A DNA stretch of 64,000 bases. It comes from Anaerolineae bacterium. GTDB lineage: Bacteria; Chloroflexota; Anaerolineae; Aggregatilineales; UBA3940. This document shows positions 34,612 to 62,538 of this stretch, in pieces. The notes beneath the pieces were generated by a model. The model was not told the DNA's origin and ran no database searches. It saw nothing but the letters and a program-made list of their open reading frames with translations. The stretch covers positions 1,603 through 65,602 of the forward strand of contig JBNKDD010000002.1 of assembly GCA_050288085.1 (NCBI GenBank), written 5' to 3'. Position 1 is the first letter of the stretch. Each line of letters opens with the position of its first letter. The position numbers and the translations under genes are program-made.

Positions 34612-34639
34612 AAGCTGCTCCTGTGGGAAACCCACTTTT

Positions 34640-34673
34640 TGTAGGGACACAAACAACATACTGTGTCCCTACA
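34640..34673. repeat. GTAG-type REP-like palindrome upstream of the ALDH gene
   Basis: TGTAGGGACACA-10 nt-TGTGTCCCTACA. Confidence 0.7.
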
Positions 34674-46375: not shown

Positions 46376-46483
46376 CAAAACAGAACACAGATCATTGCCG
46401 CAAAGTGAGGGTTGTGATATGGTGGATTTGCCGGGAGAGATGTATGATCAGCACCCTACTTGATACGAGGGCAGGAGATCACT

Positions 46484-47374
46484 ATGACCAACAAATCATC
46501 ACGTATCGCACTGGTAACCGATAGTACGGCTGACCTTCCGTCCGCGCTACGGGATCGGTTTAATATTCATATCATCCCCCAGTTGATTACCTGGGGTGAG
46601 GAAACATTTATCGACGGGGTTAACCTGAGCACCGAGGAGTTCTACCAACGACTGCGCACCGACTCAGTCTATCCCCAAACAGCGCAACCGTCAGCGCAGG
46701 GAGTCGTCGAATTATTTGATAAGCTGGCAGTCGATCACGATGTCATCATCGCGCCGGTTGTTTCATCCGATGTGAGCGGTACGGTCAACGCAATCAACAC
46801 GGCTTTAAAGCTCAAAGACCCCGGTATCCCCGTTCACCTGATCGATACGCGCTGCATCTCATTGGGCCTGGCCTATATTGTCTTACGGGCAGCGGAAGTC
46901 CGTGAACAGGGCGGCGATGTAGAAGCGATATTGGACGCCGTCAAAGACATGATGGGGCGAATGCAGATCGTGTTCACAGTTGACAATCTGGACGCCCTGC
47001 ATCGCGGTGGACGAATCGGTGGGGCTACCAAGCTGCTGGGAACAGCCCTTCAGATCAAGCCAACCCTGACCTGGGAAGAGGGGCATGTCGAGCCGTTGGG
47101 CCGGGTACGCACGCGGAAAAAGGCGCTGCTCGGCCTGGAGCAAGAAGTACAAAACCGGCTGGATAGCAGCCAACCTATCGTTATCGGGGTGGCCCATGCA
47201 GACTGCCCGGACGAGGCCCAACTTGTTGCCGATTGGTTTCAGGAAGCGCTGTCGCCACGTATGCTGTTGGTATCGCCGGTTACGCCATCTATTGGCGTTC
47301 ATGCAGGGACAGGCGTCATCGCCGTTTCTTTTGGGAATATCAGCGACGACGCATTAACCATACCGATTAGCTAA
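46484..47374 (+). CDS. DegV family fatty-acid-binding protein
   Basis: VTDSTADLP, PQTAQPS, SGT, GGRIG, IKP, IGVHAG. Confidence 0.92.
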   Translation: MTNKSSRIALVTDSTADLPSALRDRFNIHIIPQLITWGEETFIDGVNLSTEEFYQRLRTDSVYPQTAQPSAQGVVELFDKLAVDHDVIIAPVVSSDVSGTVNAINTALKLKDPGIPVHLIDTRCISLGLAYIVLRAAEVREQGGDVEAILDAVKDMMGRMQIVFTVDNLDALHRGGRIGGATKLLGTALQIKPTLTWEEGHVEPLGRVRTRKKALLGLEQEVQNRLDSSQPIVIGVAHADCPDEAQLVADWFQEALSPRMLLVSPVTPSIGVHAGTGVIAVSFGNISDDALTIPIS

Positions 47375-48155
47375 ATACCTTTTCCATCATCCCTGTAATG
47401 GCCTGATAGACTGGCGACGAGTCGCCTAATTCGACCAGTGGACGCCCACTAAATTCGAACTCAAGCAGTTCATTATCACTGGGTATTGTTCCTAAAAAGT
47501 TCACGTCCATCTGGTCGATGCGTGCCTTGAGTGGGGCAGGCATCTCACCGGAAAGCCGGTTTAAAATCAGGTAGGCGTTTTCGACCCGAATATCCAACTC
47601 ATGTCGCAGTGAGGCGATCCGCTCGGCGGCAACCAATCCACGCTGAGTCGGGTCACTGACAATCAACAGGTGTTGGACATCACGGGTTGTCCGGCGGCTG
47701 AGATGTTCCATCCCGGCTTCATTGTCGATGATCACATAGCGGTAATTTTTGCTGATCTGGTCGATCACTTCCCGCAGGTTATGGTTCACTGCACAGTAGC
47801 AGCCGGGGCCTTCTGACCGGCCCATCGCAATCAGGTCGAACCGGTCGCCCTCGGCCAATGATGAGCGGATTTCGTAATCCAGGTAATCGCGCTTTGACAC
47901 CCCACCGTTGAGAGTCCCCATTGCTGCACCACCGGTCGTCAGCGATTGTTGAACCTGGGTCAGCAAATCCTCGCGGATGTCACCAACCGTCCATTCCAGG
48001 TCAAGGCCGAGCACCATGTTCAGGTTGCTGCTCGGATCGGCATCAATCGCCAGGATCGCACCGGATTGATTCTCCATCAAATATTTGACCACCATACCGG
48101 CAACCGTTGTCTTTCCAACCCCACCCTTACCGGCCAGTGCAATTGTTGTTGTCAT
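47367..48155 (-). CDS. acsF: Nickel-insertion ATPase AcsF/CooC2 for ACS
   Basis: GKGGVGKTT, IDADP, GPGCYC, DNEAGMEHLSRRTT. Confidence 0.85.
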   Translation of the reverse strand: MTTTIALAGKGGVGKTTVAGMVVKYLMENQSGAILAIDADPSSNLNMVLGLDLEWTVGDIREDLLTQVQQSLTTGGAAMGTLNGGVSKRDYLDYEIRSSLAEGDRFDLIAMGRSEGPGCYCAVNHNLREVIDQISKNYRYVIIDNEAGMEHLSRRTTRDVQHLLIVSDPTQRGLVAAERIASLRHELDIRVENAYLILNRLSGEMPAPLKARIDQMDVNFLGTIPSDNELLEFEFSGRPLVELGDSSPVYQAITGMMEKVFS

Positions 48156-48201
48156 ACTTCACTCCTGCCATCATTATGTGAAATAAAATCACCTGTAGGT
48201 T

Positions 48202-48990
48202 CTATGTTTCTTTTGTGGGCAGCTGCTTGACCAGAGTCTCGGCCATCTCTTCAGCCGCATCCCGCAAAGCCGGAACATGATCGTACACCGGAATGCCGAG
48301 ACGGTCGGCTTCCTGCACTTTCAAATCAGCGGGAAGGAAACCCAGCACCGGAATGCCGGGGGTTTCCGCTTTGAGGAACTCGGACTCCTCGTCGTTGCGC
48401 ACTTTGTTACCCACCAGCCACAGGCGGTCTAAGCCTATATCGCTCGCCAGTTGTTTGATCTGGGCTGCTGTGCCCAGGCTGCGGCGGGTTGGCTCGACAA
48501 CGATGATCATGGCATCTACAAAGTCAACGGTTGCCCTGCCTAAATGCTCAACTCCGGCATACATATCCAGGATCAATACATCATCCTTGCGGAAAAGCAG
48601 GTGGGTGAACAGCGTCTTGAGCATGGCGCTCTCAGGGCAAATACAACCCGATCCACCCAGGTCAACCGATCCCATTTCCAACAGGCGAACACCACGATGT
48701 ACCACACTAAACCGCTCCGGGATATCATCAACACGGGGGTTAAGCGTAAAAAAGCCGCCAACCGTGCCGGGTTTTGCGCCGGTGCGTTCCTCGATCAGAG
48801 CATCCATTTCCGCGATGGGTTTTAACTGTGCCTGTACATCATCCGGGAAGCCCAACGCCCCGGCCAGGCAGGGCGATGGATCGGCATCGGCGGCCAGCAC
48901 CTCGCGGCCCGCATCGGCATAAGCCTGGGCCAACAATGCTGCCAACGTTGTCTTGCCAACGCCACCTTTTCCGCTAATCGCGAGTTTCAT
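48202..48990 (-). CDS. cooC: CODH nickel-insertion ATPase CooC
   Basis: SGKGGVGKTT, FTLNPRVDDIPE, GSGCICPE, AGVEHLGRAT. Confidence 0.9.
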   Translation of the reverse strand: MKLAISGKGGVGKTTLAALLAQAYADAGREVLAADADPSPCLAGALGFPDDVQAQLKPIAEMDALIEERTGAKPGTVGGFFTLNPRVDDIPERFSVVHRGVRLLEMGSVDLGGSGCICPESAMLKTLFTHLLFRKDDVLILDMYAGVEHLGRATVDFVDAMIIVVEPTRRSLGTAAQIKQLASDIGLDRLWLVGNKVRNDEESEFLKAETPGIPVLGFLPADLKVQEADRLGIPVYDHVPALRDAAEEMAETLVKQLPTKET

Positions 48991-49007
48991 TTAAACACTC
49001 TCCCCCG

Positions 49008-49059
49008 AAAAAATAGCGAACTGACCAGAAGATACACCTGATCAGCTCGCCTTATTTTT
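49008..49059 (-). terminator. Intrinsic terminator-like hairpin between metVF and cooC
   Basis: Minus strand GCGAGCTGATCAG..CTGGTCAGTTCGC followed by TATTTTTT. Confidence 0.6.
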
Positions 49060-49110
49060 GATTATATCGCCGTTGATTCTGGAAACAAGTAAGTTGTTTC
49101 CATTTAACGT

Positions 49111-50580
49111 CTACTCAGCAACGGCTTTTTCCTCAACCGGCACAAAATCTGGTGGCAGAAGATCAGCTTCGGTGACAATGCGCGGTACGATCTCTTCCCA
49201 ACCGACCGCCATCAGGTGGATACCGTTGACTCCTTCGAGCTTCTTGACACCTTCAATTAGTTCGAGGGCAATGGCAACACCTTCTTCTTCAGCGCCATCA
49301 CCGGCGGATTCCATGCGCTTCATCAGCGGTTCAGGGATAAAGACCCCCGGTACCTCGTTGTTCATGTATTCGGCTACACGGTAATTCTTGATCGGGGTGA
49401 TACCGATCAGGATGTAAACCTTATCCATGATGTTGCGCTTCGCCAGCTGGTTAAGCCAGATTTCCAGTCCATCGAGATCGTAGACCAGGTTGGTTTGGAA
49501 GAACTGCGCCCCGGCATTGACCTTCTTATGCTCACGGATCGCCTGGAATTCAGGCCGAGAGGCATACGGTGCAGCTGCTGCGCCCAGGAAAATATTGGGG
49601 CGGGATTTAATATTGCGCCCATCCAGGTAGTGACCCTCGTCGCGCATCCGGCGTAGAATCCAGAGCATCTGGATCGAGTCGATATCAACGACATCAAGGC
49701 GGCCCATTGGGGCCGGACCCATCCGCCCATGGTCGCCGGATAAGCATAGGATGTTGGTTACACCCATTGCACTTGCACCGATGACTTCCGCCTGAAGGCC
49801 GGTGCGGGTGCGATCACGGGCAGCAATCTGCATTACCGGCTCAGCACCCAGTTCAAGAGCAATTTTACTGCAAGCCCAGCTCGACATACGCGGGGTAGCG
49901 GATGGGCTGTCGGTGAAGTTTACGGCAGTAACATAGGGCTTGATCATCTCAATATTACGTGTGAGCTTGCCCGTTGCGGTGCTCATCGGCGGTGCAACTT
50001 CCGACGTAACCACAAATTCACCAGCACGGAGGTGGCGTTCTAGTTCAGATATGGGTTCTTCGTAGGCTGGAGCATGATACTCGGAGTCGCCTTGCCACCA
50101 ATCGGGCTGGCGAACCGGTTTGAAGATCGATTCGTGGGTTTCGGCACGCTTTTCTTTCGAGAGATAGCCGCTTATGACATTACCAAAGCCAATTTCTTTG
50201 GCCTGGTGTACCACATCGCCCCAGGTTTCACCACCAACTTTATCCCAATCAAGCGGAGGAAGCACTTCCAGCAGCATCTCCTCTCGCCCCATTTTGAAGG
50301 CACGATCATAGATCTCGTACCAGATGCAGGGGCGCGTTTCATCGACGTAGCAGTGTTCTTCAGTAGAACCACCGCAAGGGCCATTCCGCGCACCTTTGGG
50401 GCATTCCATTGGGCAAATGAAGGCTGTTTCCTGAAGCAAGCAGTTGCCACACATTCGGCAGCCGAACATCGGTCCTTTTGTCATTTTTTCAACAGTGATC
50501 AGGAGTCGGTTGCCCGCCGTTTCCTTTTTGAAGGGACGGTATGGAGGCTGCCAACGGCGTCCGGGGGTGAAAATAGGCAT
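49111..50580 (-). CDS. metF: Methylenetetrahydrofolate reductase, MetV-like Cys-rich domain fused to MetF
   Basis: N-terminal CRMCGNC..CPMECPKGARNGPCGG..C..PCIW; C-terminal EVAPP, TDSP, RDRTR..LSGD, KKVNAGAQFFQTN, GIHLM. Confidence 0.9.
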   Translation of the reverse strand: MPIFTPGRRWQPPYRPFKKETAGNRLLITVEKMTKGPMFGCRMCGNCLLQETAFICPMECPKGARNGPCGGSTEEHCYVDETRPCIWYEIYDRAFKMGREEMLLEVLPPLDWDKVGGETWGDVVHQAKEIGFGNVISGYLSKEKRAETHESIFKPVRQPDWWQGDSEYHAPAYEEPISELERHLRAGEFVVTSEVAPPMSTATGKLTRNIEMIKPYVTAVNFTDSPSATPRMSSWACSKIALELGAEPVMQIAARDRTRTGLQAEVIGASAMGVTNILCLSGDHGRMGPAPMGRLDVVDIDSIQMLWILRRMRDEGHYLDGRNIKSRPNIFLGAAAAPYASRPEFQAIREHKKVNAGAQFFQTNLVYDLDGLEIWLNQLAKRNIMDKVYILIGITPIKNYRVAEYMNNEVPGVFIPEPLMKRMESAGDGAEEEGVAIALELIEGVKKLEGVNGIHLMAVGWEEIVPRIVTEADLLPPDFVPVEEKAVAE

Positions 50581-50721
50581 GTCATCCTCTCTTGCAATCT
50601 ATGCGCGAAGCCAACAGGTATATATTATTTTTAAAAAAGACGATTAGTATTTAGTTTACCGTCGTTGATATATCAGAATCCAGTGATATTTGTATGATTC
50701 ATGGGGTGACATTTGCCAGAC

Positions 50722-50754
50722 AAAACGAGGCGAACCCAGTGAGTCCGCCTCGTT
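50722..50754 (-). terminator. Intrinsic terminator after acsE
   Basis: Minus strand AACGAGGCGGACTC-ACT-GGGTTCGCCTCGTT-TT. Confidence 0.65.
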
Positions 50755-50779
50755 GGTATATGTCACATTCAATTACGAC

Positions 50780-51703
50780 CTACTGCTCCAGGTATGAGTC
50801 GGCGTAGATCACCTTATTGAGCAGGATTTGCACCGTCTTCCAGATGGCAGCCTGCTCCGGGTCACTCATATCCACATCATCAATGGAGGGTTCTTCCATC
50901 GCAGCTACCCGGTCGGACAGCTTCAGATAGAGACGACCGAGGGCCGTACTTTCATCCCGTTCCTCAACAACGCGAATTACCTCTTTGAGGTCTTCGTCAA
51001 GTGGGTCGGCGATCATCATTTGCAGACCAGACCCCATCAGCATAGCACAGTAAACCCGGTTCATGAGCGGACGGTTCTTGTGGGGAACCGCATTTGAAAC
51101 GTTCGACAGGCCAACAGAAATGGCAGGCGGCGGATCCCAAACAACCTGCAAAGTACGCACTGCTTCGATCAGTTCAGGGCAATATTCCTGGCAGCCAGAA
51201 ACGGTCAGCACCAGCGGGTCGATGATCAGGTCTTCGATGGGATAATCGATTTCCAACATGCGCGGGATCAGCTTCTCAATCGCGATGTTGATCCGCTCAT
51301 CAGCCGCCACCGGGATGCTGCCCCGGCCCATCGTCAGCGCGATCAGTTTGGCGTTATATTCCTTAGCAACCAGCGGAACTTTCTCCAGCCGTTCTTCTTC
51401 GGCAGAGGTAGAGTTGATGATCGGCTGGGCTTTGGTGACCTTCTTCAACCCGGCTTCAATACCCTGGAGATTGGTGCTGTCAAAGCTAAGTGGAACATCA
51501 ACCACCGCCTCAACCGTCTCAACCATCCAGGGGAAAATCTCTTCCCAGTCCTTCTTGCGCGGCCCCATGTTCAGGTCAAGTGCCTGTGCACCCGCCTCGA
51601 TCTGTTGAACCGCCAGTTCCTGGAAAAACTTGGCGTCCCGCTCTTTGAGCGCCACCTTAACTTTTTCCGAAATGATGTGAATATTCTCACCGATGATATA
51701 CAT
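50780..51703 (-). CDS. acsE: Methyltetrahydrofolate:corrinoid Fe-S protein methyltransferase AcsE
   Basis: IIGENI, LDLN, SFDS, IINS, IDPL, GLSNVS pterin-binding barrel; cluster context. Confidence 0.9.
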   Translation of the reverse strand: MYIIGENIHIISEKVKVALKERDAKFFQELAVQQIEAGAQALDLNMGPRKKDWEEIFPWMVETVEAVVDVPLSFDSTNLQGIEAGLKKVTKAQPIINSTSAEEERLEKVPLVAKEYNAKLIALTMGRGSIPVAADERINIAIEKLIPRMLEIDYPIEDLIIDPLVLTVSGCQEYCPELIEAVRTLQVVWDPPPAISVGLSNVSNAVPHKNRPLMNRVYCAMLMGSGLQMMIADPLDEDLKEVIRVVEERDESTALGRLYLKLSDRVAAMEEPSIDDVDMSDPEQAAIWKTVQILLNKVIYADSYLEQ

Positions 51704-51708
51704 ATGCG

Positions 51709-53637
51709 TTAATCCTTTTTTGCGACTATTGCCGCCTCCACCGAGGGGAAGCGGGCAAGGTCCGTATGAGGAAGGAACAACGCCGACATGAACGCATCAT
51801 AGAAGGTATTGTCGGCAGATAACTCTATGTAGGTCATACGGGCAGCGATATCTTTGATCTGCGCCCGTCCATTGCGGTCTAGCAAGGCCAGATAAGCGCC
51901 TTTGACCGACGTATTCCCCAGGAATTGGAACTGATCCCAGGGCATATCAGGCAGCAGCCCGATCTCAATTGCTTTTTCAACGTTGATGTATTTACCAAAC
52001 GATCCGCCGATCAGGATTTGCTCGACCATTTCAAGCGGTACACCGACGCTCTCCGCCAGAACGGAGAACCCGGCATAGATTGCAGCCTTGGCCCGCAGCA
52101 GATTGTCGATGTCCACACGGGTAATGACAATATCCGAGCCGGTTTGTGTTTCGTCTGCCCAGGCCACAACGTACTCGCTGCCATGTTCGCCTTCACGGGT
52201 ACGCGGCGTATCCAGATCGACCTTCACATTGCCGCTTTTATCCACCACACCGGTCAGGAACAATTCTGCCAGCAGCGAGATCAAACCGCTTCCGCATAGA
52301 CCACGCGGTTTGACACCGCCAATCACGCGGAAGGATGGTTCGTAGGTTTCGCCATCAACCCAGACTTCTTCGATAGCACCCTGTGTGGCCCGCATGCCGT
52401 GTCTCACACCGGCCCCTTCAAAAGCAGGCCCGGCAGAACAGGCACAGGTCACCAGCCATTCATTTGAACCCAGCACGATCTCGCCATTGGTTCCGACATC
52501 CAGGAACAGGGTGATCTTCTCAGTGTCATCCATACCGGACGACAGCACCCCGGCGCTGATATCTGCACCAACGTAGCTGGCAATACCCGGCAAACAGTCA
52601 ATGACTCCCTCCGGGTGGATGACAATTCCGACTTCCTGTGCGATCAGAGTTGGGATATGGTTGATGGCAGTGACAAAAGGAGATAACCGGATGCTGGCTG
52701 CCGGGATACCCAACAGCAGATGGATCATGGTGCTGTTTCCGGCAACGGTCGCCTTGACGACGTCGGCAGGATCGGCCTGCACACGTTTACAAGCCCTTTC
52801 AAGCAGCTCATTGATCGTCCCCAGCACCAGGTCACGGATTTCAACGTGGCCTTCGTTTTTGCTGGAGTAGATGATCCGGGAGATGACATCCTCGCCACGA
52901 GAGATTTGCCTATTGTATTCGGCAACCTGGGCACGCACCTCGCCGGTTAGCAAATCGACCAACCAGAGCGACACCGTGGTCGTCCCAATGTCAATTGCTG
53001 CGCCCCACAGGGGTTCATCCGCCGGGGTAAGTCCAGGTTTCAGAGCGATCAACCGGGCTGGGCAATCTTCACAATCCCAGGTGGCTGTGTCGAGAACCGC
53101 CGTTACCTGCCACTCACCCTCACGAACCACGCCGCCGACTTGCCGGAGCATCGCCAATGAAGCCTGCACCTGATCAATTCCAGACTGCTGGCGCAGTGCT
53201 GTCTGAAGGCGGCTCCAATCGTCGGTCTGGTCGTCCATGCTGGGTGGATTTAAGGTCAATGCGTAGCGGTGAATGGGCTGGCTGGTGTCCGGATCATAAT
53301 CCGGCGGCACGGTTACTTTCGCCGCGGTCCGGTCGGTGGTAAGCCTTCGCTCGATTTTCTCCTGCGGCGGTACGTGAATAGCAGCATCACCTTCAACCAC
53401 CGTCTGACAGGCCAAAGCGTAACCTGCATCAACGTCCTCTTGCGATAGGCGTAGGGTGCTCCGGCGGCGTACCGTTCCGTCAGTTACCTGAACGGCACAG
53501 CGACCGCAGCGACCCTGCCCTCCGCAAGGCTGCATGATGTCTACCCCGGCCCGGCGAGCGGCCTCTACCAGCAGCGTACCGGTTGGCACACTCACCGGTT
53601 CGGGGACTGTATCGAACTTAACAAGATGTTCAGCCAT
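51709..53637 (-). CDS. acsV: Corrinoid reductive activator RACo/AcsV (2Fe-2S plus ASKHA domain)
   Basis: CGGQGRCGRC..LACQ, IDIGTTT, YVGAD, DVGTNGE, SAGPAFEG, AKAA. Confidence 0.9.
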   Translation of the reverse strand: MAEHLVKFDTVPEPVSVPTGTLLVEAARRAGVDIMQPCGGQGRCGRCAVQVTDGTVRRRSTLRLSQEDVDAGYALACQTVVEGDAAIHVPPQEKIERRLTTDRTAAKVTVPPDYDPDTSQPIHRYALTLNPPSMDDQTDDWSRLQTALRQQSGIDQVQASLAMLRQVGGVVREGEWQVTAVLDTATWDCEDCPARLIALKPGLTPADEPLWGAAIDIGTTTVSLWLVDLLTGEVRAQVAEYNRQISRGEDVISRIIYSSKNEGHVEIRDLVLGTINELLERACKRVQADPADVVKATVAGNSTMIHLLLGIPAASIRLSPFVTAINHIPTLIAQEVGIVIHPEGVIDCLPGIASYVGADISAGVLSSGMDDTEKITLFLDVGTNGEIVLGSNEWLVTCACSAGPAFEGAGVRHGMRATQGAIEEVWVDGETYEPSFRVIGGVKPRGLCGSGLISLLAELFLTGVVDKSGNVKVDLDTPRTREGEHGSEYVVAWADETQTGSDIVITRVDIDNLLRAKAAIYAGFSVLAESVGVPLEMVEQILIGGSFGKYINVEKAIEIGLLPDMPWDQFQFLGNTSVKGAYLALLDRNGRAQIKDIAARMTYIELSADNTFYDAFMSALFLPHTDLARFPSVEAAIVAKKD

Positions 53638-53862
53638 TTATCCATCCAGTGTGTGAAAGATTCTCCATCAAAGTCCGGTTTTTATCGGAAGCTGGATTGC
53701 AGACCGTCCAACTTTCGCCTTCCGGTGTCAGAGACGTGGCTTCTAAGCCGGTTCCCTGTACACGTACCCGGTTTGGTGGGCAGTTCCCACACTGATGCTC
53801 AATGGCTGTCATTCGCATACATACCTGTTGGTTCGATAACATTACATGCCTCAATAGTGTAT

Positions 53863-55206
53863 CTACGCTAAAACCTGTTTCATGTAGGAAGGTAGGTCAA
53901 CGGCCTCACGCGGCCCAACCATCACCTGCCAATCGGGCAGTTCTTCTTCCAGTTCACCGGATAGAACAGCCACATGCCCTGGCAGGACAATTCGCTTATT
54001 GCTGACTTTGTCGGCCAGGCCAAATTCCTTGACCGCTTTGGCGATCCGCTCGGCATCAAACTTACCGGCGGCCCAGGCCGTCAGCACGCTCATGCCCTCG
54101 GCATCAGCAACCAACAGCCAGCCGGGCATTCCAGACCCTTCAACTTCGTTGGCAACACTGAAGTAAGTGATGCTGAAGTTGGTGGTAACCAGCACCGGGT
54201 CTTCGGGTTTTGGATCGTTGATTTCGTATAGACCTGGTTGTACCTGGATGGGCTTCTGCGGGTCGGTGTAGATGTTTTGGCGCAGCACCAACAGCGAGTA
54301 AGCCAGTTCGGGCTTGAACTTATCGAGCACGATGAAGCCTGCATACTTGGCAATCGCCTGGGCAGCCAGCACCGACTCATGGCCCGGATCACCGGCTTCG
54401 CTGGGGAAGGCGATAATCGGGAAGCCCAGCGGGCGGAAATTCTTCTTGAGAGCCAGGCGGCGAATCTGGGTGCTGAGAGTCAGCGACCCGCTCATGTCCC
54501 GCGCAGCCGGATCAAGCACCAGGTCTTCAACACCCTTGCCCTTGATCTTTTCGGTCAGGTCGGCCAATTCATCCAGTGAGCCGCCGATAACGGACAGCGG
54601 CACTGAATGCTTGCTGGCCAGATCGGCCATCGCTTCCCAGTTGTCGGCGTCAGCACCATAGATCAGAGGAGCTTCGCCATCAACTGCCTGAAGTCCGGCC
54701 TCAACAACTGCCGGGTCTTTGCTAATCAAGATCAAAGGGAGGCTGCTCGCTTCGCGTACAGCGCTAACTGCTGCCGCGAATGCTGAAGCATCGCCGCTGC
54801 TCGATTCGACCGCAATCCCGTCCAGCTTCAGGTCAATGCCCACGTAGTTGACGGCATAAGCATCAATTTCCTGGACACTGGCCTTGATATCATCGGCGGA
54901 TTGTCCATCTTTCACACGGATGAACAGACCCGGCATATGATAGAAAGTCTTCTCGTGACGGAACAACACCACTTCGTTGCCCGATTTAACCTCATGCCCA
55001 TTGGCCTTGAGCGTCACCAACCGCACCGGCGGGGCCGCCGATTCGGCTAACTGCTCTTTGGCCTCATCGCTAACGTGGGGGCAGTCGGAGAGTTCGACCT
55101 GCTTGGCGGCCAATTTCATCGCAAAGGCCAGGCAGGTGGGGAAGCCACAGTCCTTACAGTTGGTCTGCGGCAGCATTTTGTAGATTTGGATACCAGATAA
55201 AGCCAT
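53863..55206 (-). CDS. acsC: Corrinoid Fe-S protein large subunit AcsC
   Basis: LPQTNCKDCGFPTCLAFA..CP, RHEKTF, LRQNIYTDPQKP, TTNFSITYF, SVLTAWAAGKF. Confidence 0.96.
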   Translation of the reverse strand: MALSGIQIYKMLPQTNCKDCGFPTCLAFAMKLAAKQVELSDCPHVSDEAKEQLAESAAPPVRLVTLKANGHEVKSGNEVVLFRHEKTFYHMPGLFIRVKDGQSADDIKASVQEIDAYAVNYVGIDLKLDGIAVESSSGDASAFAAAVSAVREASSLPLILISKDPAVVEAGLQAVDGEAPLIYGADADNWEAMADLASKHSVPLSVIGGSLDELADLTEKIKGKGVEDLVLDPAARDMSGSLTLSTQIRRLALKKNFRPLGFPIIAFPSEAGDPGHESVLAAQAIAKYAGFIVLDKFKPELAYSLLVLRQNIYTDPQKPIQVQPGLYEINDPKPEDPVLVTTNFSITYFSVANEVEGSGMPGWLLVADAEGMSVLTAWAAGKFDAERIAKAVKEFGLADKVSNKRIVLPGHVAVLSGELEEELPDWQVMVGPREAVDLPSYMKQVLA

Positions 55207-55233
55207 TCTTTTTCTCCTTGCCGGATGAAATCC

Positions 55234-56208
55234 CTATGCCTCTTCGGGGACGGTCATCAACTCGTCGATGGCGGCCTTAACGCGCTTGACGCTTTCGGGG
55301 TGACGCAGCACGACAATATCAGCACCCGATTCGAGCAGCGGGATAGCGGTTAAGGTTTCCCAACTGATCGCTCGTTCCTGCCAATCGCCCCAGGCTTCAG
55401 GAACACCATCACCAACCTTAGCTTCCTTTGCCTTCCAGGTTTCATAGCCAACCGTGACGATCATCGGTAACTGCGTCATGGCGTCGCCCTGAAGGGCAGC
55501 CAACCGCAGACGCTCCATCACTGAATAGCCATATTCAATCCCATAGCCAAGTGCACCGGTGGTCGGGTCCATGATCACCCGCTCAAGAGGCAGTCCCATG
55601 TCGCTGATCAGGATATTAAGCTGTTTTGCCAGATTAACATCCATAGCGGTGCGGGCAACAACCAGGTGATCGTTTGCCATAGCCGTTGCCACAATGGTGC
55701 GATAGTTCTTATCCTCGCAAAGCCCCAATACCAGCCGCTCACCTTTGGTCGCCTCGGCAACCGGGACCAGCAACTCGTTATCGATGTCGACCTGTCCGGG
55801 GCCAAAGACCATCAAGGGCAGACCGCTGGCTTCGAGCACGGCTTTCACCGCCGCCACTGCCTGATCGGGGGTAGTCGGATTGCCATCCGCATCGGTCAGG
55901 CTCAGGCTGAGTTGGAGCAAATCGGCTCCAGCTTCTTCGGCTGCCTTTGCCCAGGTTCCGGGGTCATTAGCTGCATCGCCCCAGACTTCCAACAACAATT
56001 CCGACCAATCATCCGGCAGGCGGTCTTTGATTTCCACTGCCACCAACGGACGATAGGGCATCTCGTTCTCAAAATGCATAAACGGCAGCGATTTTTCACC
56101 GCCAATTGTAACGGTAGAGCTTCGGGAACCGCCGTCAGCTTCCACCGCACCGATAGTAATCGTGCGGACCTCTCCGGCCCATTTATCTTTTGGCACTTCA
56201 ACAGGCAT
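55234..56208 (-). CDS. acsD: Corrinoid Fe-S protein small subunit AcsD
   Basis: DVNLAKQLN, MDPTTGALGYGIEY, MERLRLAAL.GD..QLP, RHP. Confidence 0.95.
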   Translation of the reverse strand: MPVEVPKDKWAGEVRTITIGAVEADGGSRSSTVTIGGEKSLPFMHFENEMPYRPLVAVEIKDRLPDDWSELLLEVWGDAANDPGTWAKAAEEAGADLLQLSLSLTDADGNPTTPDQAVAAVKAVLEASGLPLMVFGPGQVDIDNELLVPVAEATKGERLVLGLCEDKNYRTIVATAMANDHLVVARTAMDVNLAKQLNILISDMGLPLERVIMDPTTGALGYGIEYGYSVMERLRLAALQGDAMTQLPMIVTVGYETWKAKEAKVGDGVPEAWGDWQERAISWETLTAIPLLESGADIVVLRHPESVKRVKAAIDELMTVPEEA

Positions 56209-56213
56209 ATATA

Positions 56214-56732
56214 TTACTCCTGATTGCGTTTGTGAAGCTCGGCCTGCCGCCGTGCGGCGTCGCGCTTCTCGATAAATATTTCTATAGGCGACCGGCGTTC
56301 TGCTTCGATACCCAGATCACGCAGTTCTGTATCGTTATCTGCTGTCAAGTGGCGTAGAAGGTGTCGGTAAGACAGCATCGCCGCCGGGTAAATGATACCA
56401 TTGGCGTTGTGTGTCAGAAAAACGATGCGAGTGCCCATATCTTGCATAAGCTGGGCGGCTGCTGTTAATGGAATATCTGGCGGAACTTCGTGCATCCCCT
56501 CGGTCATCACATCTTCTGCGACGAGATCATGTACATTGTCGCGTGTATAAGCTTTGACCAACTCATCCTGAGTGACCACCCCGACCGCCTGTCCATCCTG
56601 GTCAAGGACAACCATGCCTTCCAGGTCTTTTTCAAGCAAGAGGCGGGCAATGTCAATAACCGGTGTATCAGGTGGGCAGGTGGAAACTCCGACCGTCATC
56701 AAGTCGCGGACGAGCTTAGGATTATCGCCCAT
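56214..56732 (-). CDS. Stand-alone CBS-pair (Bateman) protein
   Basis: VRDLMT..VVLDQDGQAVGVVTQDEL..AEDVMT; GAGGGG RBS before ATG 56732. Confidence 0.85.
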   Translation of the reverse strand: MGDNPKLVRDLMTVGVSTCPPDTPVIDIARLLLEKDLEGMVVLDQDGQAVGVVTQDELVKAYTRDNVHDLVAEDVMTEGMHEVPPDIPLTAAAQLMQDMGTRIVFLTHNANGIIYPAAMLSYRHLLRHLTADNDTELRDLGIEAERRSPIEIFIEKRDAARRQAELHKRNQE

Positions 56733-56788
56733 GTTACCCCTCAAGACAGAATCAGGGGAGGAACGATGTCCTCCCCTCCCAATTTTAC

Positions 56789-59062
56789 CTAGAAAATTGC
56801 ATCCATGACCAGTGCTGGATGGTTGTGTTCCTCCAGCCAGGCCATCAATTCATCAACGGTGTTAACGTTGCGCTCGTCGGCGATCTTATCGATCAGATCG
56901 GGATCGCCCTCGCGCTCGGCAACCACCTTGAATTCATCGGACATTGTTTCCTTGAGGACGCTGCTCATCCAGACGACGCGCTTGAATCCGCCGTCTGAGG
57001 AGATGAACTTGGGGCTGATCAGGTAGAACTTACCAACACCCATCACGCCCGGCGTTTGCAGACCGCCACCGGCAATACCAGCCAGGGTACTGAATGTCAT
57101 CCCTGCCGGGGTCATGCTGGTGTCCTCGCGGCTGACAACCATCACGCCGTTGACTTCGGGGATCAACATCACGATGCACTCAAAGCAGCCGCAGGCCGTC
57201 ATCGGATTTTCCATGATTGAGTACATGGCAACCTCTTCGACCACACCATGCGAGCCAATCTTGGCGTATTCGTTGGTTCCTTCCCAGTAGCCCTTTTCAA
57301 AGTCAACCAGTTTACCAAGCTTAATGGGTTGATTGGGGCCGGTCGGATTGATGCTAAATGAGGCTTTGCAGTCCAGCCAGTTGTAAGCGCCGCACAGGCC
57401 CAGGCGCTCCGGGCTGACCACGCAAACGTGATTCGGTGCGAAGGATTGGCACAGCGTGCAGGAATAGAACTCATCGACTGCATCATCGGTCAGGTCGGCC
57501 AGCCGCTTGTTGCGATAGTCATAAGCTTCGCGGGCAGTGCCCAACCACTCTTCGAGCTTGTCTGGATCGGTGTAGATCGTGACCTGCACCTTATCGACAA
57601 TCGCGCCGAAATCGGCGTGGAAGCGGGCGTGCAATATCTTGCCAAAGTGCTCCAGATTGAAGCCTTTATCCGCTGCCGCCGTCGAGACACGAATCCAGGT
57701 GATATCACGCTGCCCGATGTGCTGGATACCAGAAGCACCATTAACGAAGTAGTGAACCTGGCGCTCAAGCACCGGTTCAAAGTCTTCCTGCATTTGCCGT
57801 CCGGCCACCTCGATGACAATACCCATGTCCATCGAGCCCTGTACATCAAGCTCGTCAAAGCCTGGGCCAACCACCTCAACTTTGCCATCGGTGACATCAT
57901 CCAGGCCCGCCATCCGCAGGTACTCGAAGCACCGGGAGTGCTTACCGCCAAACTCGACGCGCATGTCTGCCCGGCGGACAACCTCGCCCTCGAAAGCGGA
58001 GCCGTAGGGAACCGGAACTGGCACATCGGCGACTTTAACCTTGACGCCACGCACTTCGATGCACTTCTGCACCAGCCGCTCGGCACGTTCAAGATCATCT
58101 GCCCCGTCGATCTCGTTGAAGGGCATGCTGACCACATGTTCATAGGTCGTCACACCGGTGGGCAGGATTTCGGGGATAACCGTATCGGCGATCACCGGGA
58201 AGCCAAAGTTGATGGCCCCGGCGGCTGCCGCGTATTTCAAATCATCGACCTCACCCAGTGCCAGCACGAAGGCGAACACACGCTCCCGGTTGTACAGCAG
58301 GATTTCGCGGGCCATCGCAGGCTTGAGGCCGCCGAAGGTCAGTGCCGACCGGGTAGCAAACCCCAGTGCATAGATAGCGCTCAGTGTGTCAGTGCCGAAG
58401 GGGACAGTATAGGTGTCATAACCCAGTTCAACGCCCTCTTCTTGCAACTGGTGGATGATACTCCGCCCGTTAACATTGCCCGACAGGAAGGTCAGGATGT
58501 TACGGCGTTGAAGCTCACGCACGATCTGTACGGCCACCTCGTTTGACTTGGCCGCACCGACAATCGCCGCGAAGCCGGGCATACGCCCGTCCACCAACTG
58601 GATACCCCATGAACGGAGTTGGATGTCATCAATTGGGCCGTTCAGGTGACCAGCCGGGCCATCGCCATTACCACCGTATGAGGTTCCACCGGCCAACTCA
58701 AAGCCGGGATAGGGCTCTGGCTGCAAGCCGTACACAAAGCGAACAGCCTCGATGGCTTCCGCAGCAATGAGAGTCGCCATACCGCTGTCGAGTGTCTCGC
58801 CGAGGTAAGGCGTCCAATTGTGGATCGAGGGAATCGGGTGCAGCAGTTCGCGGGCATGAGCCAGCACCGGCTTGAGCTGTTCCAGCGTTTCCACCTCGAT
58901 TCCGGTCATGCCCAGGATCAACGGCAGATAGTAAGCCGTGTTAGGGAATGAAACCGGTGTATCAGGCCCCTTTTCTGCCAGGGCTTTCTCCAGCATGACT
59001 TCTGCTTCCGTGACAAGGGCACTCGCCCCGCGAATGGCCCTCGTAGCAATATATCGTGACAT
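56789..59062 (-). CDS. acsB: Acetyl-CoA synthase (bacterial type) AcsB
   Basis: FPNTAYYLP, A-cluster motifs SCTLCQSFAPNHVC..GLCGA and PMTACGCFE, GGLQTPG. Confidence 0.97.
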   Translation of the reverse strand: MSRYIATRAIRGASALVTEAEVMLEKALAEKGPDTPVSFPNTAYYLPLILGMTGIEVETLEQLKPVLAHARELLHPIPSIHNWTPYLGETLDSGMATLIAAEAIEAVRFVYGLQPEPYPGFELAGGTSYGGNGDGPAGHLNGPIDDIQLRSWGIQLVDGRMPGFAAIVGAAKSNEVAVQIVRELQRRNILTFLSGNVNGRSIIHQLQEEGVELGYDTYTVPFGTDTLSAIYALGFATRSALTFGGLKPAMAREILLYNRERVFAFVLALGEVDDLKYAAAAGAINFGFPVIADTVIPEILPTGVTTYEHVVSMPFNEIDGADDLERAERLVQKCIEVRGVKVKVADVPVPVPYGSAFEGEVVRRADMRVEFGGKHSRCFEYLRMAGLDDVTDGKVEVVGPGFDELDVQGSMDMGIVIEVAGRQMQEDFEPVLERQVHYFVNGASGIQHIGQRDITWIRVSTAAADKGFNLEHFGKILHARFHADFGAIVDKVQVTIYTDPDKLEEWLGTAREAYDYRNKRLADLTDDAVDEFYSCTLCQSFAPNHVCVVSPERLGLCGAYNWLDCKASFSINPTGPNQPIKLGKLVDFEKGYWEGTNEYAKIGSHGVVEEVAMYSIMENPMTACGCFECIVMLIPEVNGVMVVSREDTSMTPAGMTFSTLAGIAGGGLQTPGVMGVGKFYLISPKFISSDGGFKRVVWMSSVLKETMSDEFKVVAEREGDPDLIDKIADERNVNTVDELMAWLEEHNHPALVMDAIF

Positions 59063-59076
59063 GTAATGGTTCCTCC

Positions 59077-61089
59077 CTATTTACCCGGCTCGCCGTACAG
59101 AGCTTCACGCTTGTCGGCCAGGGACATTTCTTCAAGTTCTAACATCCGGGCATCGCCGCTTCGACCGTAGCGATTCGGGTCGTACTCCGGCAGACCCAGC
59201 GCGGCCCGCTTCTTATCGATATGTTCGAGTGTAGCACGGATCACTTCATCGGGATCGTTGATGAACTCTAACTTACCACCGTAGAGTTCTTCCCAACCCT
59301 CGCTAATATACTGTTCAACAAGGGTGCTGTTTGACACCCGATCCGGCATACCGCCAACCGGGTTCGATCCGCTCATGATCACGTAAGCACCGGAGGCCAC
59401 GCAGTAAGTAGCAATCGACAGCGCTTTTTCGCTCATCCACTCAGGAGCCAGACCAACAGCAGGCACCTGATCGATATCATCTCCCAGACCACCCTCTTCG
59501 ACCACCTGAGTCAACACCGTCAGGATACGGGTGTTGTCTACACAAGAGCCCATATGCAGCACCGGCGGGATACCAACCGTCTCACAAATTTCACGCAGAC
59601 CAGGTCCAACCTTATCCAACCCGGCCTCGCCCAACAGGAAGCCCATCTTAGCAGTAGCAATGGCGCTGCAGCCAGTTTCGACTACCAGCACGTCCTGCTT
59701 GAGCAGTTCCTGGGTGATATAGGTGTGATAGGCATCATGCTGGATTCGGGGGTTGGTGCAGCCGACAATCGCCGCCACGCCACGAATACGCCCGGACATC
59801 ACCGCATCATTCAAAGGACGGAATGATGCACGATATGAACCACCCAGCATGTAGTTAATGTATTCATGTGAGAAGCCGGGGATCAAGTCGGTCCGGTAAT
59901 CGGGGATCTGGGTTTCGCCGCGATTCTTGTAGTTGTCGATGGCCTCTTTCAGAATCTCCTTGGCAATGGTCAGGGCCTTGTGCTCATCAAACTCGATGTG
60001 AGTCGCGCCCTTAATTTTGACCTTCGGCGAGGTGGTGATGATCTTCGTGTGGAAGTTCTCGGCCAGGCCAACCAGTGCTTGCATAATGCATTGCACGTCA
60101 ACGACCATCGCGTCAACCGCACCAGTCAAGATAGCGAGTTCTTGCTGTAAGAAGTTTCCAGCAGCCGGGATACCCTGACGCATCAGGATTTCGTTCGCCG
60201 TGCAGCAAATACCGGACAGGTTAACGCCATCTGATCCGGCAGCTCTGGCATACTCGATAATCTCCGGGTCCTGTGAGGCCGCCACGATCATCTGGCTGAG
60301 GGTTGGCTCGTGACCATGCACTACTACGTTGACCATATTGTCTTTCAAAACGCCCAGGTTGGCCTGCCCCAGGATCGGGGCCGGTGTGCCAAACAGGATG
60401 TCTGAAATGTCGGTTGCAATCAGGCTTCCGCCCCACCCATCACTCAGTGATGCGCGAACGGCGTGGTGCAGGATATGCTCGGCTTCCTGGTCATCGCCGA
60501 TATGGGTGCGGTGCAGCGCTTCAACCACTTCACGATCTATCCCACGCGGAATCACACCAAGCTCTTCCCACAGCTTCTGGCGTTTTTCTGGTGCACGGGT
60601 AACCGGGACAAGCGTGCCGCGCTGCTGCCCAAACTGTGCAATGTACAGGTCAGCCAGATCGTTAGCGATCTCCTCAGGAGAGCGTCCTTCAATCGGGATA
60701 TCGTAATAGGATGCAACCGTACGCAGCTTGGCAACATCGCGGATCATGTAGCCCTCGGCCTCGCCGTTAGCAACAGCCTTAAGTGTAAAGGCCATATCAC
60801 GCCCGTGGTCGGAGTGAGCCGACGCACCGGCAGCAATGGAGCGGATCAGGTTACGGGCCTGGATCGTGTCAATCGTTGCCCCGCAGATACCGGTTGAGCC
60901 ATCCTTGGTCAGACGGCAGGGGCCCATCCCACATAACTTACAGCACATACCCGCCGATCCGATATTGCACGGGGCCATATCATCGGCCCGGCTGAATGCG
61001 GTACCAATGCCTAACTCGTCCGCGCGGATCAGCATCTCCTGTGCTGCCGGGTCAACACTTTGCTCTTGTGGTGTTCGTTTCTTTGCCAT
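59077..61089 (-). CDS. cooS: Anaerobic Ni-CO dehydrogenase catalytic subunit CooS/AcsA
   Basis: C-x7-CCKLCGMGPC (D/B clusters), HSDH, HGHEP, ICCTANE, VDVQC, VGC, GSCVDN, EWMSEKA. Confidence 0.97.
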   Translation of the reverse strand: MAKKRTPQEQSVDPAAQEMLIRADELGIGTAFSRADDMAPCNIGSAGMCCKLCGMGPCRLTKDGSTGICGATIDTIQARNLIRSIAAGASAHSDHGRDMAFTLKAVANGEAEGYMIRDVAKLRTVASYYDIPIEGRSPEEIANDLADLYIAQFGQQRGTLVPVTRAPEKRQKLWEELGVIPRGIDREVVEALHRTHIGDDQEAEHILHHAVRASLSDGWGGSLIATDISDILFGTPAPILGQANLGVLKDNMVNVVVHGHEPTLSQMIVAASQDPEIIEYARAAGSDGVNLSGICCTANEILMRQGIPAAGNFLQQELAILTGAVDAMVVDVQCIMQALVGLAENFHTKIITTSPKVKIKGATHIEFDEHKALTIAKEILKEAIDNYKNRGETQIPDYRTDLIPGFSHEYINYMLGGSYRASFRPLNDAVMSGRIRGVAAIVGCTNPRIQHDAYHTYITQELLKQDVLVVETGCSAIATAKMGFLLGEAGLDKVGPGLREICETVGIPPVLHMGSCVDNTRILTVLTQVVEEGGLGDDIDQVPAVGLAPEWMSEKALSIATYCVASGAYVIMSGSNPVGGMPDRVSNSTLVEQYISEGWEELYGGKLEFINDPDEVIRATLEHIDKKRAALGLPEYDPNRYGRSGDARMLELEEMSLADKREALYGEPGK

Positions 61090-61120
61090 AATGATGAATC
61101 TCCTGTGGTCGGAAAAACCC

Positions 61121-61516
61121 CTAATCGTCTATCGTTTGAACAGGTCCCATGCCAGGGCACGGCCACAGCGGACGCCCGGCAAAGGCAACACTATGTGCGA
61201 AACTCACGACGTTGCCGGTGTGCTCATAAGCAGCACTATGGCGGAAGAAGGCCTTCTCGCCATTTAGCTCATTGACAGGTGTCCCGGTTTCAACATCCAT
61301 CAAAAATTCACCGAGATAGCCTGCCTCATCAAGTTTAGCCTTGATCGCATCTTCACTGACCTGAGCCGGATCGTAAGTGATCTCGGCTGCATGAAAGCTG
61401 CTGCTGGCATACACATCCTCAACGCCGGCTATCTCTAATAGAATACGGCGAACTTCAAGTACATGGTGATCGCCATACATAGTTGGGAGGTCTAGACTTA
61501 GAGTCTCCATTTTCAC
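61121..61516 (-). CDS. Heavy-metal-associated (HMA)-fold protein with MYGDHH motif
   Basis: LDLPTMYGDHHVLEVRRIL..GVEDV..ITYDP..I..KLDEAGY matches the HMA pattern; C-terminal WPCPGMG. Confidence 0.8.
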   Translation of the reverse strand: MKMETLSLDLPTMYGDHHVLEVRRILLEIAGVEDVYASSSFHAAEITYDPAQVSEDAIKAKLDEAGYLGEFLMDVETGTPVNELNGEKAFFRHSAAYEHTGNVVSFAHSVAFAGRPLWPCPGMGPVQTIDD

Positions 61517-61842: not shown

Positions 61843-62538
61843 ATGAATTTATCCGATTGGACACAGATACATATCCACATTCTTCAGTTGGAACAAGAAG
61901 GGCGCGTAACCCGCACATTCAGGCGGCTCGATCCAAACCGCCAGCAAGTAATACTCGCGGCAATCCTGGATGAGGCTATTGAAAAAGGGCCAACTGCATT
62001 GAATATCAAGCAGGTTGCCAAACGGGCCGACGTTTCAGTTGGTTCACTTTATACCTACTTTTCAAACCGGGATGGCCTGCTGGAATTTACTATCGAGTTA
62101 TGTACCCGGTACATCGTAGACGAATTTGACCGCTATCGCTCCATGTTGGCAGCCATGCCGCTCCGGGATGCGTTGGAGGCTTATCTAACCGGCGGCGTGG
62201 AATGGAGCCAGACCCAGGTTGGCTTGATACAGTTTTTTATGAAAGCAGCTTACCAGGGTGATCCCGCTTTACAAGAACGCCTGGTTCGCCCGGTGGCCGA
62301 TACCATGCGGGAGATGGTGCACGAGATTCTTGCCCAGGCTGCCGAGCGGGGCGAAATTCGCAGCGACGTTGACCTGGATGCCTCCACCCGGTTAATTCAT
62401 GCCCTGATGATCGCCGTCGGCGACAGCCAACTGCTGCCCTACCTGAACACCTATTTCCAGGTAAGCAGCGATGAGATCGCACCGGAGCGCATGATGGCCG
62501 CACTTCTGGACTTTATTCTGAATGGAATAGGAACGTGA
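61843..62538 (+). CDS. TetR/AcrR family transcriptional regulator
   Basis: IKQVAKRADVSVGSLYTYFSNRDGL HTH; GEIRSDVD. Confidence 0.92.
   Translation: MNLSDWTQIHIHILQLEQEGRVTRTFRRLDPNRQQVILAAILDEAIEKGPTALNIKQVAKRADVSVGSLYTYFSNRDGLLEFTIELCTRYIVDEFDRYRSMLAAMPLRDALEAYLTGGVEWSQTQVGLIQFFMKAAYQGDPALQERLVRPVADTMREMVHEILAQAAERGEIRSDVDLDASTRLIHALMIAVGDSQLLPYLNTYFQVSSDEIAPERMMAALLDFILNGIGT

Follow-up and report, generated by a model that had tools for sequence, protein, structure and literature searches.

Nickel delivery to the C-cluster of carbon monoxide dehydrogenase (CODH) and the A-cluster of acetyl-CoA synthase (ACS) is only partly understood, and the proteins CooC, CooT, CooJ and AcsF are patchily distributed. 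Here we analyzed a CODH/ACS gene cluster in 64,000 nucleotides of contig JBNKDD010000002.1 (the window, whose coordinates are used below) from a metagenome-assembled genome (MAG) of an Anaerolineae bacterium, with emphasis on the gene preceding the CODH gene cooS, whose small product resembles heavy-metal-associated (HMA) domains. The clusters of acetogens (Moorella thermoacetica, Carboxydothermus hydrogenoformans and Clostridium autoethanogenum; structures 1mjg/1oao, 7zkj and 6ytt) have CooS/AcsA, AcsB to AcsE, RACo and two CooC/AcsF-type ATPases in common with this one. In contrast to them, the Anaerolineae cluster begins with the HMA-like gene, has a CBS gene between acsB and acsD, and includes a one-chain MetV::MetF in the operon. 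In addition, fhs, folD and fdh are unlinked, and sister families have AcsB fused to AcsD, with or without inteins.

The Wood-Ljungdahl pathway has already been reported in Anaerolineae (Sewell 2017, PMC5736913), and an hdrABC-mvhD-metVF cluster was described for marine single-cell genomes of this class in the same work; the sections of that paper available to us do not mention CBS, heavy or CooC. Likewise, the available sections of a 2019 Ni-CODH survey (PMC6344411) list only CooC and CooT as metallochaperones and, supplementary neighbor tables aside, contain no mention of heavy, copper, CBS or HMA. In a 2026 survey of Ni-CODH genomic contexts (PMC13056359), the available text, again apart from supplementary tables, does not mention HMA, CopZ, CBS, Chloroflex, 'heavy metal' or chaperone. 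Literature searches turned up no paper about an HMA-type or CBS-type protein accompanying CODH/ACS, although supplementary neighbor tables might list such proteins. The pathway is known, it is known in this lineage, and public MAGs commonly share the gene order; the accessory set is conserved and uncharacterized.

The window contains a complete, ordinary-looking conserved CODH/ACS operon of Anaerolineae with three lineage-typical additions. We consider it probable that the locus is a conserved Anaerolineae operon with a fused MetV::MetF, a putative CBS switch and an HMA-like protein that is a putative nickel partner of CooS. An earlier sequence-only reading of this DNA had proposed a lineage-specific module with its own candidate metal chaperone, nucleotide sensor and single-chain methylenetetrahydrofolate reductase. 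Worth pursuing are the mis-annotated HMA protein with its DHH motif, which is tied to cooS, its variants fused to a helix-turn-helix (HTH) domain, and the acs-specific CBS protein. The HMA-like gene is a good candidate for a new factor in CODH maturation or control. Its product offers a cheap, testable candidate for a missing step of maturation or control, which bears on efforts to convert CO2 with active CODH/ACS produced in heterologous hosts. Sediments and digesters are rich in Anaerolineae, and the wiring of their pathway (single-chain MetVF, CBS switch, AcsB::AcsD) bears on carbon-cycle models.

Conservation of the operon and its HMA-like gene

Proteins of the window were searched against Pfam and NCBIfam models. 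Twelve co-oriented open reading frames (ORFs) on the minus strand occupy 47367-61516, and 11 of them were given an identity by these models. Every gene that the sequence-only reading had named, from the HMA gene to acsF, was placed as claimed, with its family supported. The HMA-like gene (61121-61516) stands at the head of the run. Its ORF encodes 131 amino acids from a GTG codon, and relatives begin at an ATG two codons in (61510).

To place the locus among its kin, we used 61 genomes of the same family and order, this MAG included. AcsB was present in 32 of them, with 75-89% identity for full-length matches. Neighborhoods were taken for 20 of the 31 AcsB-positive relatives, long contigs being chosen. 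The order HMA-like, cooS, acsB, CBS, acsD, acsC, RACo, acsE, metVF, cooC, cooC was kept in these 20 loci, confirming that the succession HMA-cooS-acsB-CBS-acsD, for which a synteny search had been proposed, recurs across Anaerolineae MAGs. The HMA-like gene was present in all 20. The CBS gene was found in 17 (absent from L046, L048 and L052; duplicated and located after acsD in L035, L049 and L050), as was metVF (absent from L046-L048).

The best HMA-like matches provided a further 80 public Chloroflexota loci, some from the same genomes as the 20. In all loci with at least 630 nt of flank (74/74), cooS lay directly downstream of the HMA-like gene, at a median gap of 22 nt and sometimes overlapping it; the remaining 6 of the 80 end too early to show cooS. 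The HMA-like gene occupied the first position of the operon in all loci. The CBS gene was present in 25 of the 47 wider loci that hold acsB, acsD and acsC.

Genome-wide profile searches (E <= 1e-10 for the HMA-like protein and E <= 1e-25 for the CBS protein) gave the same picture. The HMA-like profile matched 31 of the 32 AcsB-positive genomes and none of the 29 AcsB-negative ones, the sole miss being a genome of 75% completeness (G023). An orthologue of the CBS gene was found in 27/32 and 0/29 genomes, respectively. Co-occurrence of the accessory genes with acs in relatives, which the sequence-only reading had set as its own test, was thus observed. The HMA-like, CBS and MetV::MetF proteins proved to be true acs companions, although CBS is optional outside the order. 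Because the genomes are kin and the genes linked, these counts indicate that the accessory genes travel with acs and are lost together with it, rather than demonstrating independent events.

The 80 best public loci were all from Chloroflexota, assigned to Anaerolineae, Anaerolineales, Caldilineales, Promineifilaceae or Ardenticatenaceae. The nearest public loci thus agree with the earlier view of a carbonyl-branch and methyl-transfer module in a Chloroflexota-like genome. Searches of species-representative genomes returned 416 tblastn-confirmed HMA-like loci, and 3714 protein clusters were found. Among 201 Chloroflexota genomes sampled evenly, 35 had AcsB (E <= 1e-30) and 15 had the HMA-like protein. 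Of these 15, all but one were AcsB-positive (14/15); in the one HMA-like genome without AcsB, the contig ends inside cooS. The other 21 AcsB-positive genomes had no HMA-like match, including 8/8 genomes of one family (1.4-1.9 Mb, AcsB 47-50% identical). Other classes have shorter relatives (ORFs of 109-119 amino acids) that keep [WY][AG]DHH and have no conserved tail, and in 4 of the 6 loci retrieved these immediately preceded cooS-acsB. As judged from profiles and synteny, the HMA-like accessory typically accompanies CODH/ACS in one branch of Chloroflexota and is far from unique to this genome. The proposed lineage specificity therefore holds for the branch but not for the genome. One locus (L097) had appeared to offer an HMA-like-cooS context without acsB; it was rejected, as the first 38 codons of acsB follow and the cluster is truncated.

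Features and possible role of the HMA-like protein

The HMA-like protein scored 23.9 bits against PF00403, below the cut-off of 24.8, and its fold was confirmed by modeling. In the AlphaFold (AF2) model, residues 1-70 were confident, with block means of the predicted local distance difference test (pLDDT) of 82-96. Foldseek matched the model to MerP, CopZ, Atx1 and the HMA domains of ATPases at TM scores of 0.86-0.90 and a root-mean-square deviation of ~1 A. We are confident that the predicted fold is the ferredoxin-like fold of HMA domains. The CxxC (GMxCxxC) metal site of that fold is replaced by D16-H17-H18, in the context MYGDHH. Because a strand at residues 4-9 is followed by a helix at 16-27 in the model, D16-H17-H18 would occupy the loop/helix-1 region, which is the metal-binding position of HMA domains. 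The protein also has an additional C-terminal tail of 60 amino acids with conserved R92-H93, F106 and W118-P-C120-P-G. In an alignment of 21 sequences, P11, D16, H17, H18, R92, F106 and P121 were invariant, and H93, W118 and C120 nearly so. Among the best 120 database relatives, [MLF][YF][GA]DHH and [WY]xCPG were present in 120/120 and [FYL]RH[ST] in 118/120, and CxxC was present in none (0/120).

Databases name this family 'copper chaperone CopZ' or 'heavy-metal-associated domain-containing protein', and its neighbors in the ESM Atlas are Chloroflexota clusters named 'hypothetical protein'. The NCBIfam CopZ models gave 24-25 bits against cut-offs of 91-95. Because both cysteines of the site are replaced, the CopZ copper label appears unsafe. 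Like CopZ, Atx1 and MerP, the protein has a beta-alpha-beta-beta-alpha-beta fold (residues 1-70), is small and soluble, and is encoded beside its presumed client. Unlike them, it has D-H-H in place of GMxCxxC and a 60-amino-acid tail with RH and WPCPG motifs, and its neighbor is a nickel enzyme rather than a P-type ATPase. It resembles CooC, CooT and CooJ in being an operon-encoded small candidate helper of Ni-CODH, with CooC-type ATPases also present here, but it has no sequence relation to them. A search with CooT (PF10133) gave no match for the HMA-like protein and none in this MAG. The His-rich tail of CooJ has no counterpart in the HMA-like protein.

Among longer relatives, six proteins of 240-275 amino acids and one of 201 amino acids (P0110 and P0241-P0246) had a MerR/excisionase-type HTH N-terminal to the HMA-like domain, with the DHH and CPG motifs kept. 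In 4 of 100 HMA-bearing loci (L075, L091, L100 and L115), an HTH was encoded in frame with the HMA-like domain, immediately before cooS-acsB. These HTH-HMA ORFs, of ~200-275 amino acids, stand at the head of cooS-acsB clusters. In a further protein (P0247), a cyclic nucleotide (cNMP)-binding domain precedes the N-terminal half of the HMA-like domain. At least some members of the family therefore appear to be parts of DNA-binding proteins at the operon head. This favors a sensor role in those lineages, where the HMA-like domain would be the metal-sensing module of an operon regulator, and does not conflict with a chaperone that additionally communicates with a regulator.

We favor the reading that the HMA-like protein would bind a metal, most likely Ni(II), as a dedicated partner of CooS and would act as a metallochaperone that feeds CooC/CooS maturation. 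The metal chaperone of the sequence-only reading is thus one of two live interpretations, and the HTH-fused forms keep the other, a sensor, alive. Because HTH fusions are found in 4/100 loci, the protein may be a sensor or regulator instead of, or besides, a chaperone. NikR senses nickel by a ferredoxin-like domain with His/Cys ligands, and CopZ hands copper to the repressor CopY. In the sensor reading, the HMA-like protein would mainly be a sensory or regulatory module that binds a signal, metal or otherwise, and controls the transcription or activity of the CODH/ACS operon. HTH-fused forms would do so directly, and stand-alone forms by way of a partner encoded by a separate gene. The HTH-HMA fusions at the operon head, with DHH and CPG retained, the cNMP-binding fusion, and the invariable first position of the gene all point in this direction. 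On the other hand, 96 of the 100 loci and the window encode only the 130-amino-acid form without a DNA-binding domain, this genome has a single HTH relative, weakly matched, on contig C6 (E 1e-8), and tight, sometimes overlapping coupling to cooS is seen more typically with subunits or maturation factors. We regard a mainly sensory role as rather unlikely. The loss of both canonical cysteines and the Pfam score below the gathering cut-off would also fit a degenerate, non-metal HMA protein, serving as a structural or assembly subunit of CODH/ACS or being an unrelated small protein kept by linkage, and metal-site-free HMA folds do exist, such as the YAM domain of YajR among the Foldseek matches. 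Such a protein would hardly be expected to keep D-H-H invariant (21/21 and 120/120) at the exact metal site, nor in the short relatives of other classes, and further His and Cys residues are conserved in the tail; we consider this explanation improbable.

Returning to the reading as a nickel partner of CooS, several observations weigh against it. The metal is a guess from ligand chemistry, and binding is predicted only. CooJ, HypB and UreE have His-rich stretches, and the HMA-like protein has none of that kind. Its conserved tail was modeled with low confidence (pLDDT 34-63). In one genus of another class, a short DHH relative occurs in an unrelated context, with AcsB elsewhere in the genome. 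The HTH and cNMP-binding (P0247) fusions point to signaling over delivery. The co-occurrence described above is not independent evidence because the genomes are kin and the genes are linked in one operon. The CBS gene appears dispensable because it is missing in 5/32 AcsB-positive relatives and 22/47 wider loci. Finally, the MAG has a completeness of 85.6% and contains pieces of another acs cluster. A complex prediction for monomeric CooS with the HMA-like protein, run without controls, scored 0.00 and speaks neither for nor against binding.

A more far-reaching version of the nickel reading, which we think rather unlikely, is that the DHH-type HMA protein represents a new nickel-handler class for anaerobic CODH, a Chloroflexota-restricted family uniting the roles of a chaperone and a NikR-like sensor. 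A fold otherwise used by copper chaperones would have been adapted: its Asp/His/His site and the His and Cys residues of the tail would bind Ni(II), the protein would hand the metal to CooC/CooS, and the HTH-fused variants would report nickel supply to the operon promoter.

Core enzymes, CBS protein and MetV::MetF

All genes of the cluster described in this section lie on the minus strand. The product of cooS/acsA (59077-61089), the Ni-CODH catalytic subunit of 670 amino acids, scored 598 bits against TIGR01702 (cut-off 478) and aligned over its full length to solved CODHs (610 bits to PDB 6t7j and 591 bits to 6ytt_B). Its Cys/His motifs were identical to those of 6t7j in the alignment. The product of acsB (56789-59062), acetyl-CoA synthase of 757 amino acids, scored 959 bits against NF040764 (cut-off 800) and aligned over its full length to PDB 7zkj_B (677 bits), with the CxxC..C..C and CGCFE motifs identical. 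These motif residues are those which we take to serve the individual clusters (B, C and D in CooS and the A-cluster in AcsB). The claim that the cluster motifs of both enzymes are intact is borne out by these alignments. The corrinoid iron-sulfur protein is encoded by acsD (small subunit, 55234-56208; NF003376, 385.8 bits) and acsC (large subunit with an N-terminal FeS domain, 53863-55206; NF003195, 572 bits, with PF04060 and PF03599), both over the NCBIfam cut-offs. RACo/AcsV (51709-53637) has 2Fe-2S and ASKHA parts (PF14574, PF17651, PF17650, PF00111 and Fer2), and acsE (50780-51703), the methyltetrahydrofolate (methyl-H4folate):corrinoid protein methyltransferase gene, matched PF00809 (Pterin_bind, 61.9 bits). 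Both proteins were over the Pfam cut-offs and below those of the NCBIfam exception models (NF040756, 649 bits against 800, and NF005719, 212 bits against 259, respectively).

Two CooC-family ATPases of 262 amino acids, both matching PF01656 (CbiA/CooC-type) and both carrying a CxC motif, complete the cluster. The first (48202-48990, C-I-C), a CooC-type Ni-insertion ATPase, gave 151 bits to the solved CooC1 (3kje). The second (47367-48155, C-Y-C), an AcsF candidate and the conserved last gene of the cluster in relatives, gave 72.9 bits and is ~32% identical to the first. In this comparison, which contained no AcsF reference, one ATPase is close to CooC1 and the other distant. The earlier cooC and acsF labels fit these scores, although they are not proven by them.

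From well-studied homologues, CooS would interconvert CO2 and CO, and AcsB would join CO, a methyl group and CoA. AcsC and AcsD would carry the methyl group on cobalamin, loaded from methyl-H4folate by AcsE, and RACo would use ATP to re-reduce oxidized cobalt. The two CooC-type ATPases would insert nickel. A fused MetV::MetF would act as a single-chain MetFV-type reductase, supplying methyl-H4folate from within the operon.

The CBS gene (56214-56744) lies between acsB and acsD and encodes a stand-alone CBS-pair (Bateman) protein of 176 amino acids, with two stretches matching PF00571 (66.7 bits). The two tandem motifs form one standard Bateman module, and the profile of the protein matches solved CBS proteins. 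Its AF2 model (pLDDT 79.3) has two beta-alpha-beta-beta-alpha units and a helix at 153-175, and the alignment has a conserved C-terminal helix, DLGI..R..P...F..KRDAARR. From its family only, the protein would most likely couple the complex to adenylate or ligand state.

MetV::MetF (49111-50580) combines PF12225 (residues 24-112, 95.8 bits) and PF02219 (residues 180-471, 98.5 bits) in one ORF of 489 amino acids, with the Cys-rich MetV part N-terminal and the MetF barrel C-terminal, which confirms the predicted single-chain reductase. These are the domains of MetFV of Clostridium ljungdahlii and of the Moorella HdrABC-MvhD-MetVF system. In contrast to those systems, here they form one polypeptide with MetV at the N-terminus, inside the acs operon and without Hdr/Mvh; no hdr or mvh genes were found in the operon beside this ORF. 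Both domains were present in all 120 best listed database relatives, where the fused proteins bear the name 'methylenetetrahydrofolate reductase C-terminal domain-containing protein', and fusion is by this count the rule in Anaerolineae databases. Elsewhere in the MAG are a fused copy adjoining mvhD (C314), an unfused metV/metF pair (C97) and a lone metF (C39).

Several further observations concern the core enzymes. CooS has a C-terminal extension of ~36 amino acids (window 59077-59185) beyond the solved CODH fold, which was kept in 19/19 aligned relatives with conserved residues Y636, P638, G642, S644-G-D646, R648 and Y665-G666. The idea that this extension tracks the HMA-like tail was dropped, as 2 of 4 loci from other classes do not conform to it. 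Sister families encode AcsB and AcsD as a single polypeptide, as in L035:3543-7274 (G031, 1244 amino acids) and in G044 and G032, with frames of 1232-1248 amino acids. In the L035 protein, the CdhD domain occupies residues 938-1224, after a linker of ~180 amino acids that has no family match. The CBS gene of the three genomes with this fusion is behind acsD or absent. A still longer AcsB::AcsD frame of 2342 amino acids (L049:3577-10602, G024) has two insertions with Intein_splicing, Hint and LAGLIDADG_3 matches, which identify them as inteins with homing endonucleases inside acetyl-CoA synthase; similar split matches occur in G003, G043 and G054. The acs cluster of L051 (G011:C11:165800-182200) looks degraded or badly assembled: TGA stops interrupt its acsB, and matches to cooS, acsD, acsC, RACo and the second cooC are fragmentary.

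Host genome, pathway direction and surroundings

The host MAG comprises 6.38 Mb in 696 contigs, with 3.14% contamination, and the window lies on its contig C2. The MAG yielded no 16S rRNA gene, and its placement here follows the titles of related public loci. Pieces of another acsB-acsD-acsC set, 78/71/70% identical to those of the window, occur on contigs C499 (3133 nt) and C637 (551 nt). The acsB and acsD fragments share one open frame (876 amino acids) and are thus of the fused type. They represent either another, divergent copy in the same genome or a mixture of two related organisms in the bin.

As the sequence-only reading stated, fhs, folD and fdh are not in the window. Two folD genes were found elsewhere in the MAG (C330 and C23), as was fdhA (C79, 17720-19873; 708 bits), which has one in-frame TGA. 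A genome-wide family search did not find fhs in the 85.6%-complete MAG. Of the 61 genomes of the same family and order, this MAG counted, 55 have the gene, among them all 31 AcsB-positive relatives, and in relatives it is unlinked. Its absence from the window therefore says little, and because every AcsB-positive relative has it, its absence from the MAG is most likely a gap in the bin. Four FlpD/MvhD genes are present, of which one adjoins the second fused metVF; the copy at C314:4488-4856 has a single in-frame TGA. The TGA codons in this gene and in fdhA are possible selenocysteine codons. NiFe hydrogenase large subunits are encoded on four contigs, and ADP-forming acetyl-CoA synthetase-like genes are also present. 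RnfD and acetate kinase were not found in the 85.6%-complete MAG. The genome-wide search for pathway partners that had been suggested thus found folD, fdhA, MvhD and NiFe hydrogenases but not fhs or RnfD.

These genes bear on the direction of the pathway, which, in agreement with the sequence-only reading, sequence cannot give. The operon may run oxidatively (acetyl-CoA cleavage, or acetate or CO oxidation) rather than reductively (CO2 fixation or acetogenesis), a possibility that is somewhat doubtful. The missing acetate kinase and RnfD, the reversible ADP-forming acetyl-CoA synthetase-like genes, and the large genome (6.4 Mb) with much heterotrophic housekeeping around the cluster would suit oxidation. 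However, the NiFe hydrogenases, the four MvhD/FlpD genes, the TGA-containing FdhA and the two folD genes fit a reductive route as well, and the gene absences are weak evidence because the MAG is only 85.6% complete.

Near-identical DNA was found in read runs of several studies, and contigs from two other studies span the whole 9.5-kb stretch, HMA-like gene included, at 90-99% likeness. One metatranscriptome run contained short contigs that match acsC, acsD and the cooS/acsB junction with identities of 99% or more. Neither the HMA-like gene nor most of the CBS gene was covered in the same run, which is not evidence of silence. The contigs hint weakly at expression; the support is weak because RNA libraries can contain DNA.

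Within the operon, the spacers are 5-46 nt except those of acsC-RACo (225 nt), acsE-metVF (199 nt) and metVF-cooC (120 nt). The acsC-RACo spacer contains an ORF of 74 amino acids (53630-53854, minus strand), which the sequence-only reading had counted within the run. Because it has no Pfam or NCBIfam match and no tblastn counterpart in the 20 and 80 related loci, it is probably spurious rather than a gene. A promoter/terminator scan found a terminator-like hairpin with a 15-pair stem and a T-rich tail in the metVF-cooC spacer (49015-49051, minus strand); counts of such sites in the region were not above those of shuffles, and the hairpin is a lead only. A gathering-threshold scan of the whole window against Rfam gave no matches and hence no riboswitch, including in the acsC-RACo and acsE-metVF spacers.

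The operon is flanked by a convergent DegV gene (46460-47374) and by a divergent TetR gene (61843-62538) with an ABC-2 transporter. TetR and DegV were rejected as parts of the module, since neither had a match in the 20 or 80 related loci. GC content is even over the window, and there is no sign of a mobile island at the locus. The remaining 44 kb are housekeeping genes (MiaB-like, RodZ, Clp ATPase, DnaX, PheS/PheT, RecN, NAD kinase and others). Two ORFs on the minus strand, of 458 (13105-14481) and 240 amino acids (14558-15280), have no Pfam family at E <= 1e-5. An aldehyde dehydrogenase-family ORF on the same strand (32158-34659) is unusually long, at 833 amino acids, and contains two Aldedh stretches.

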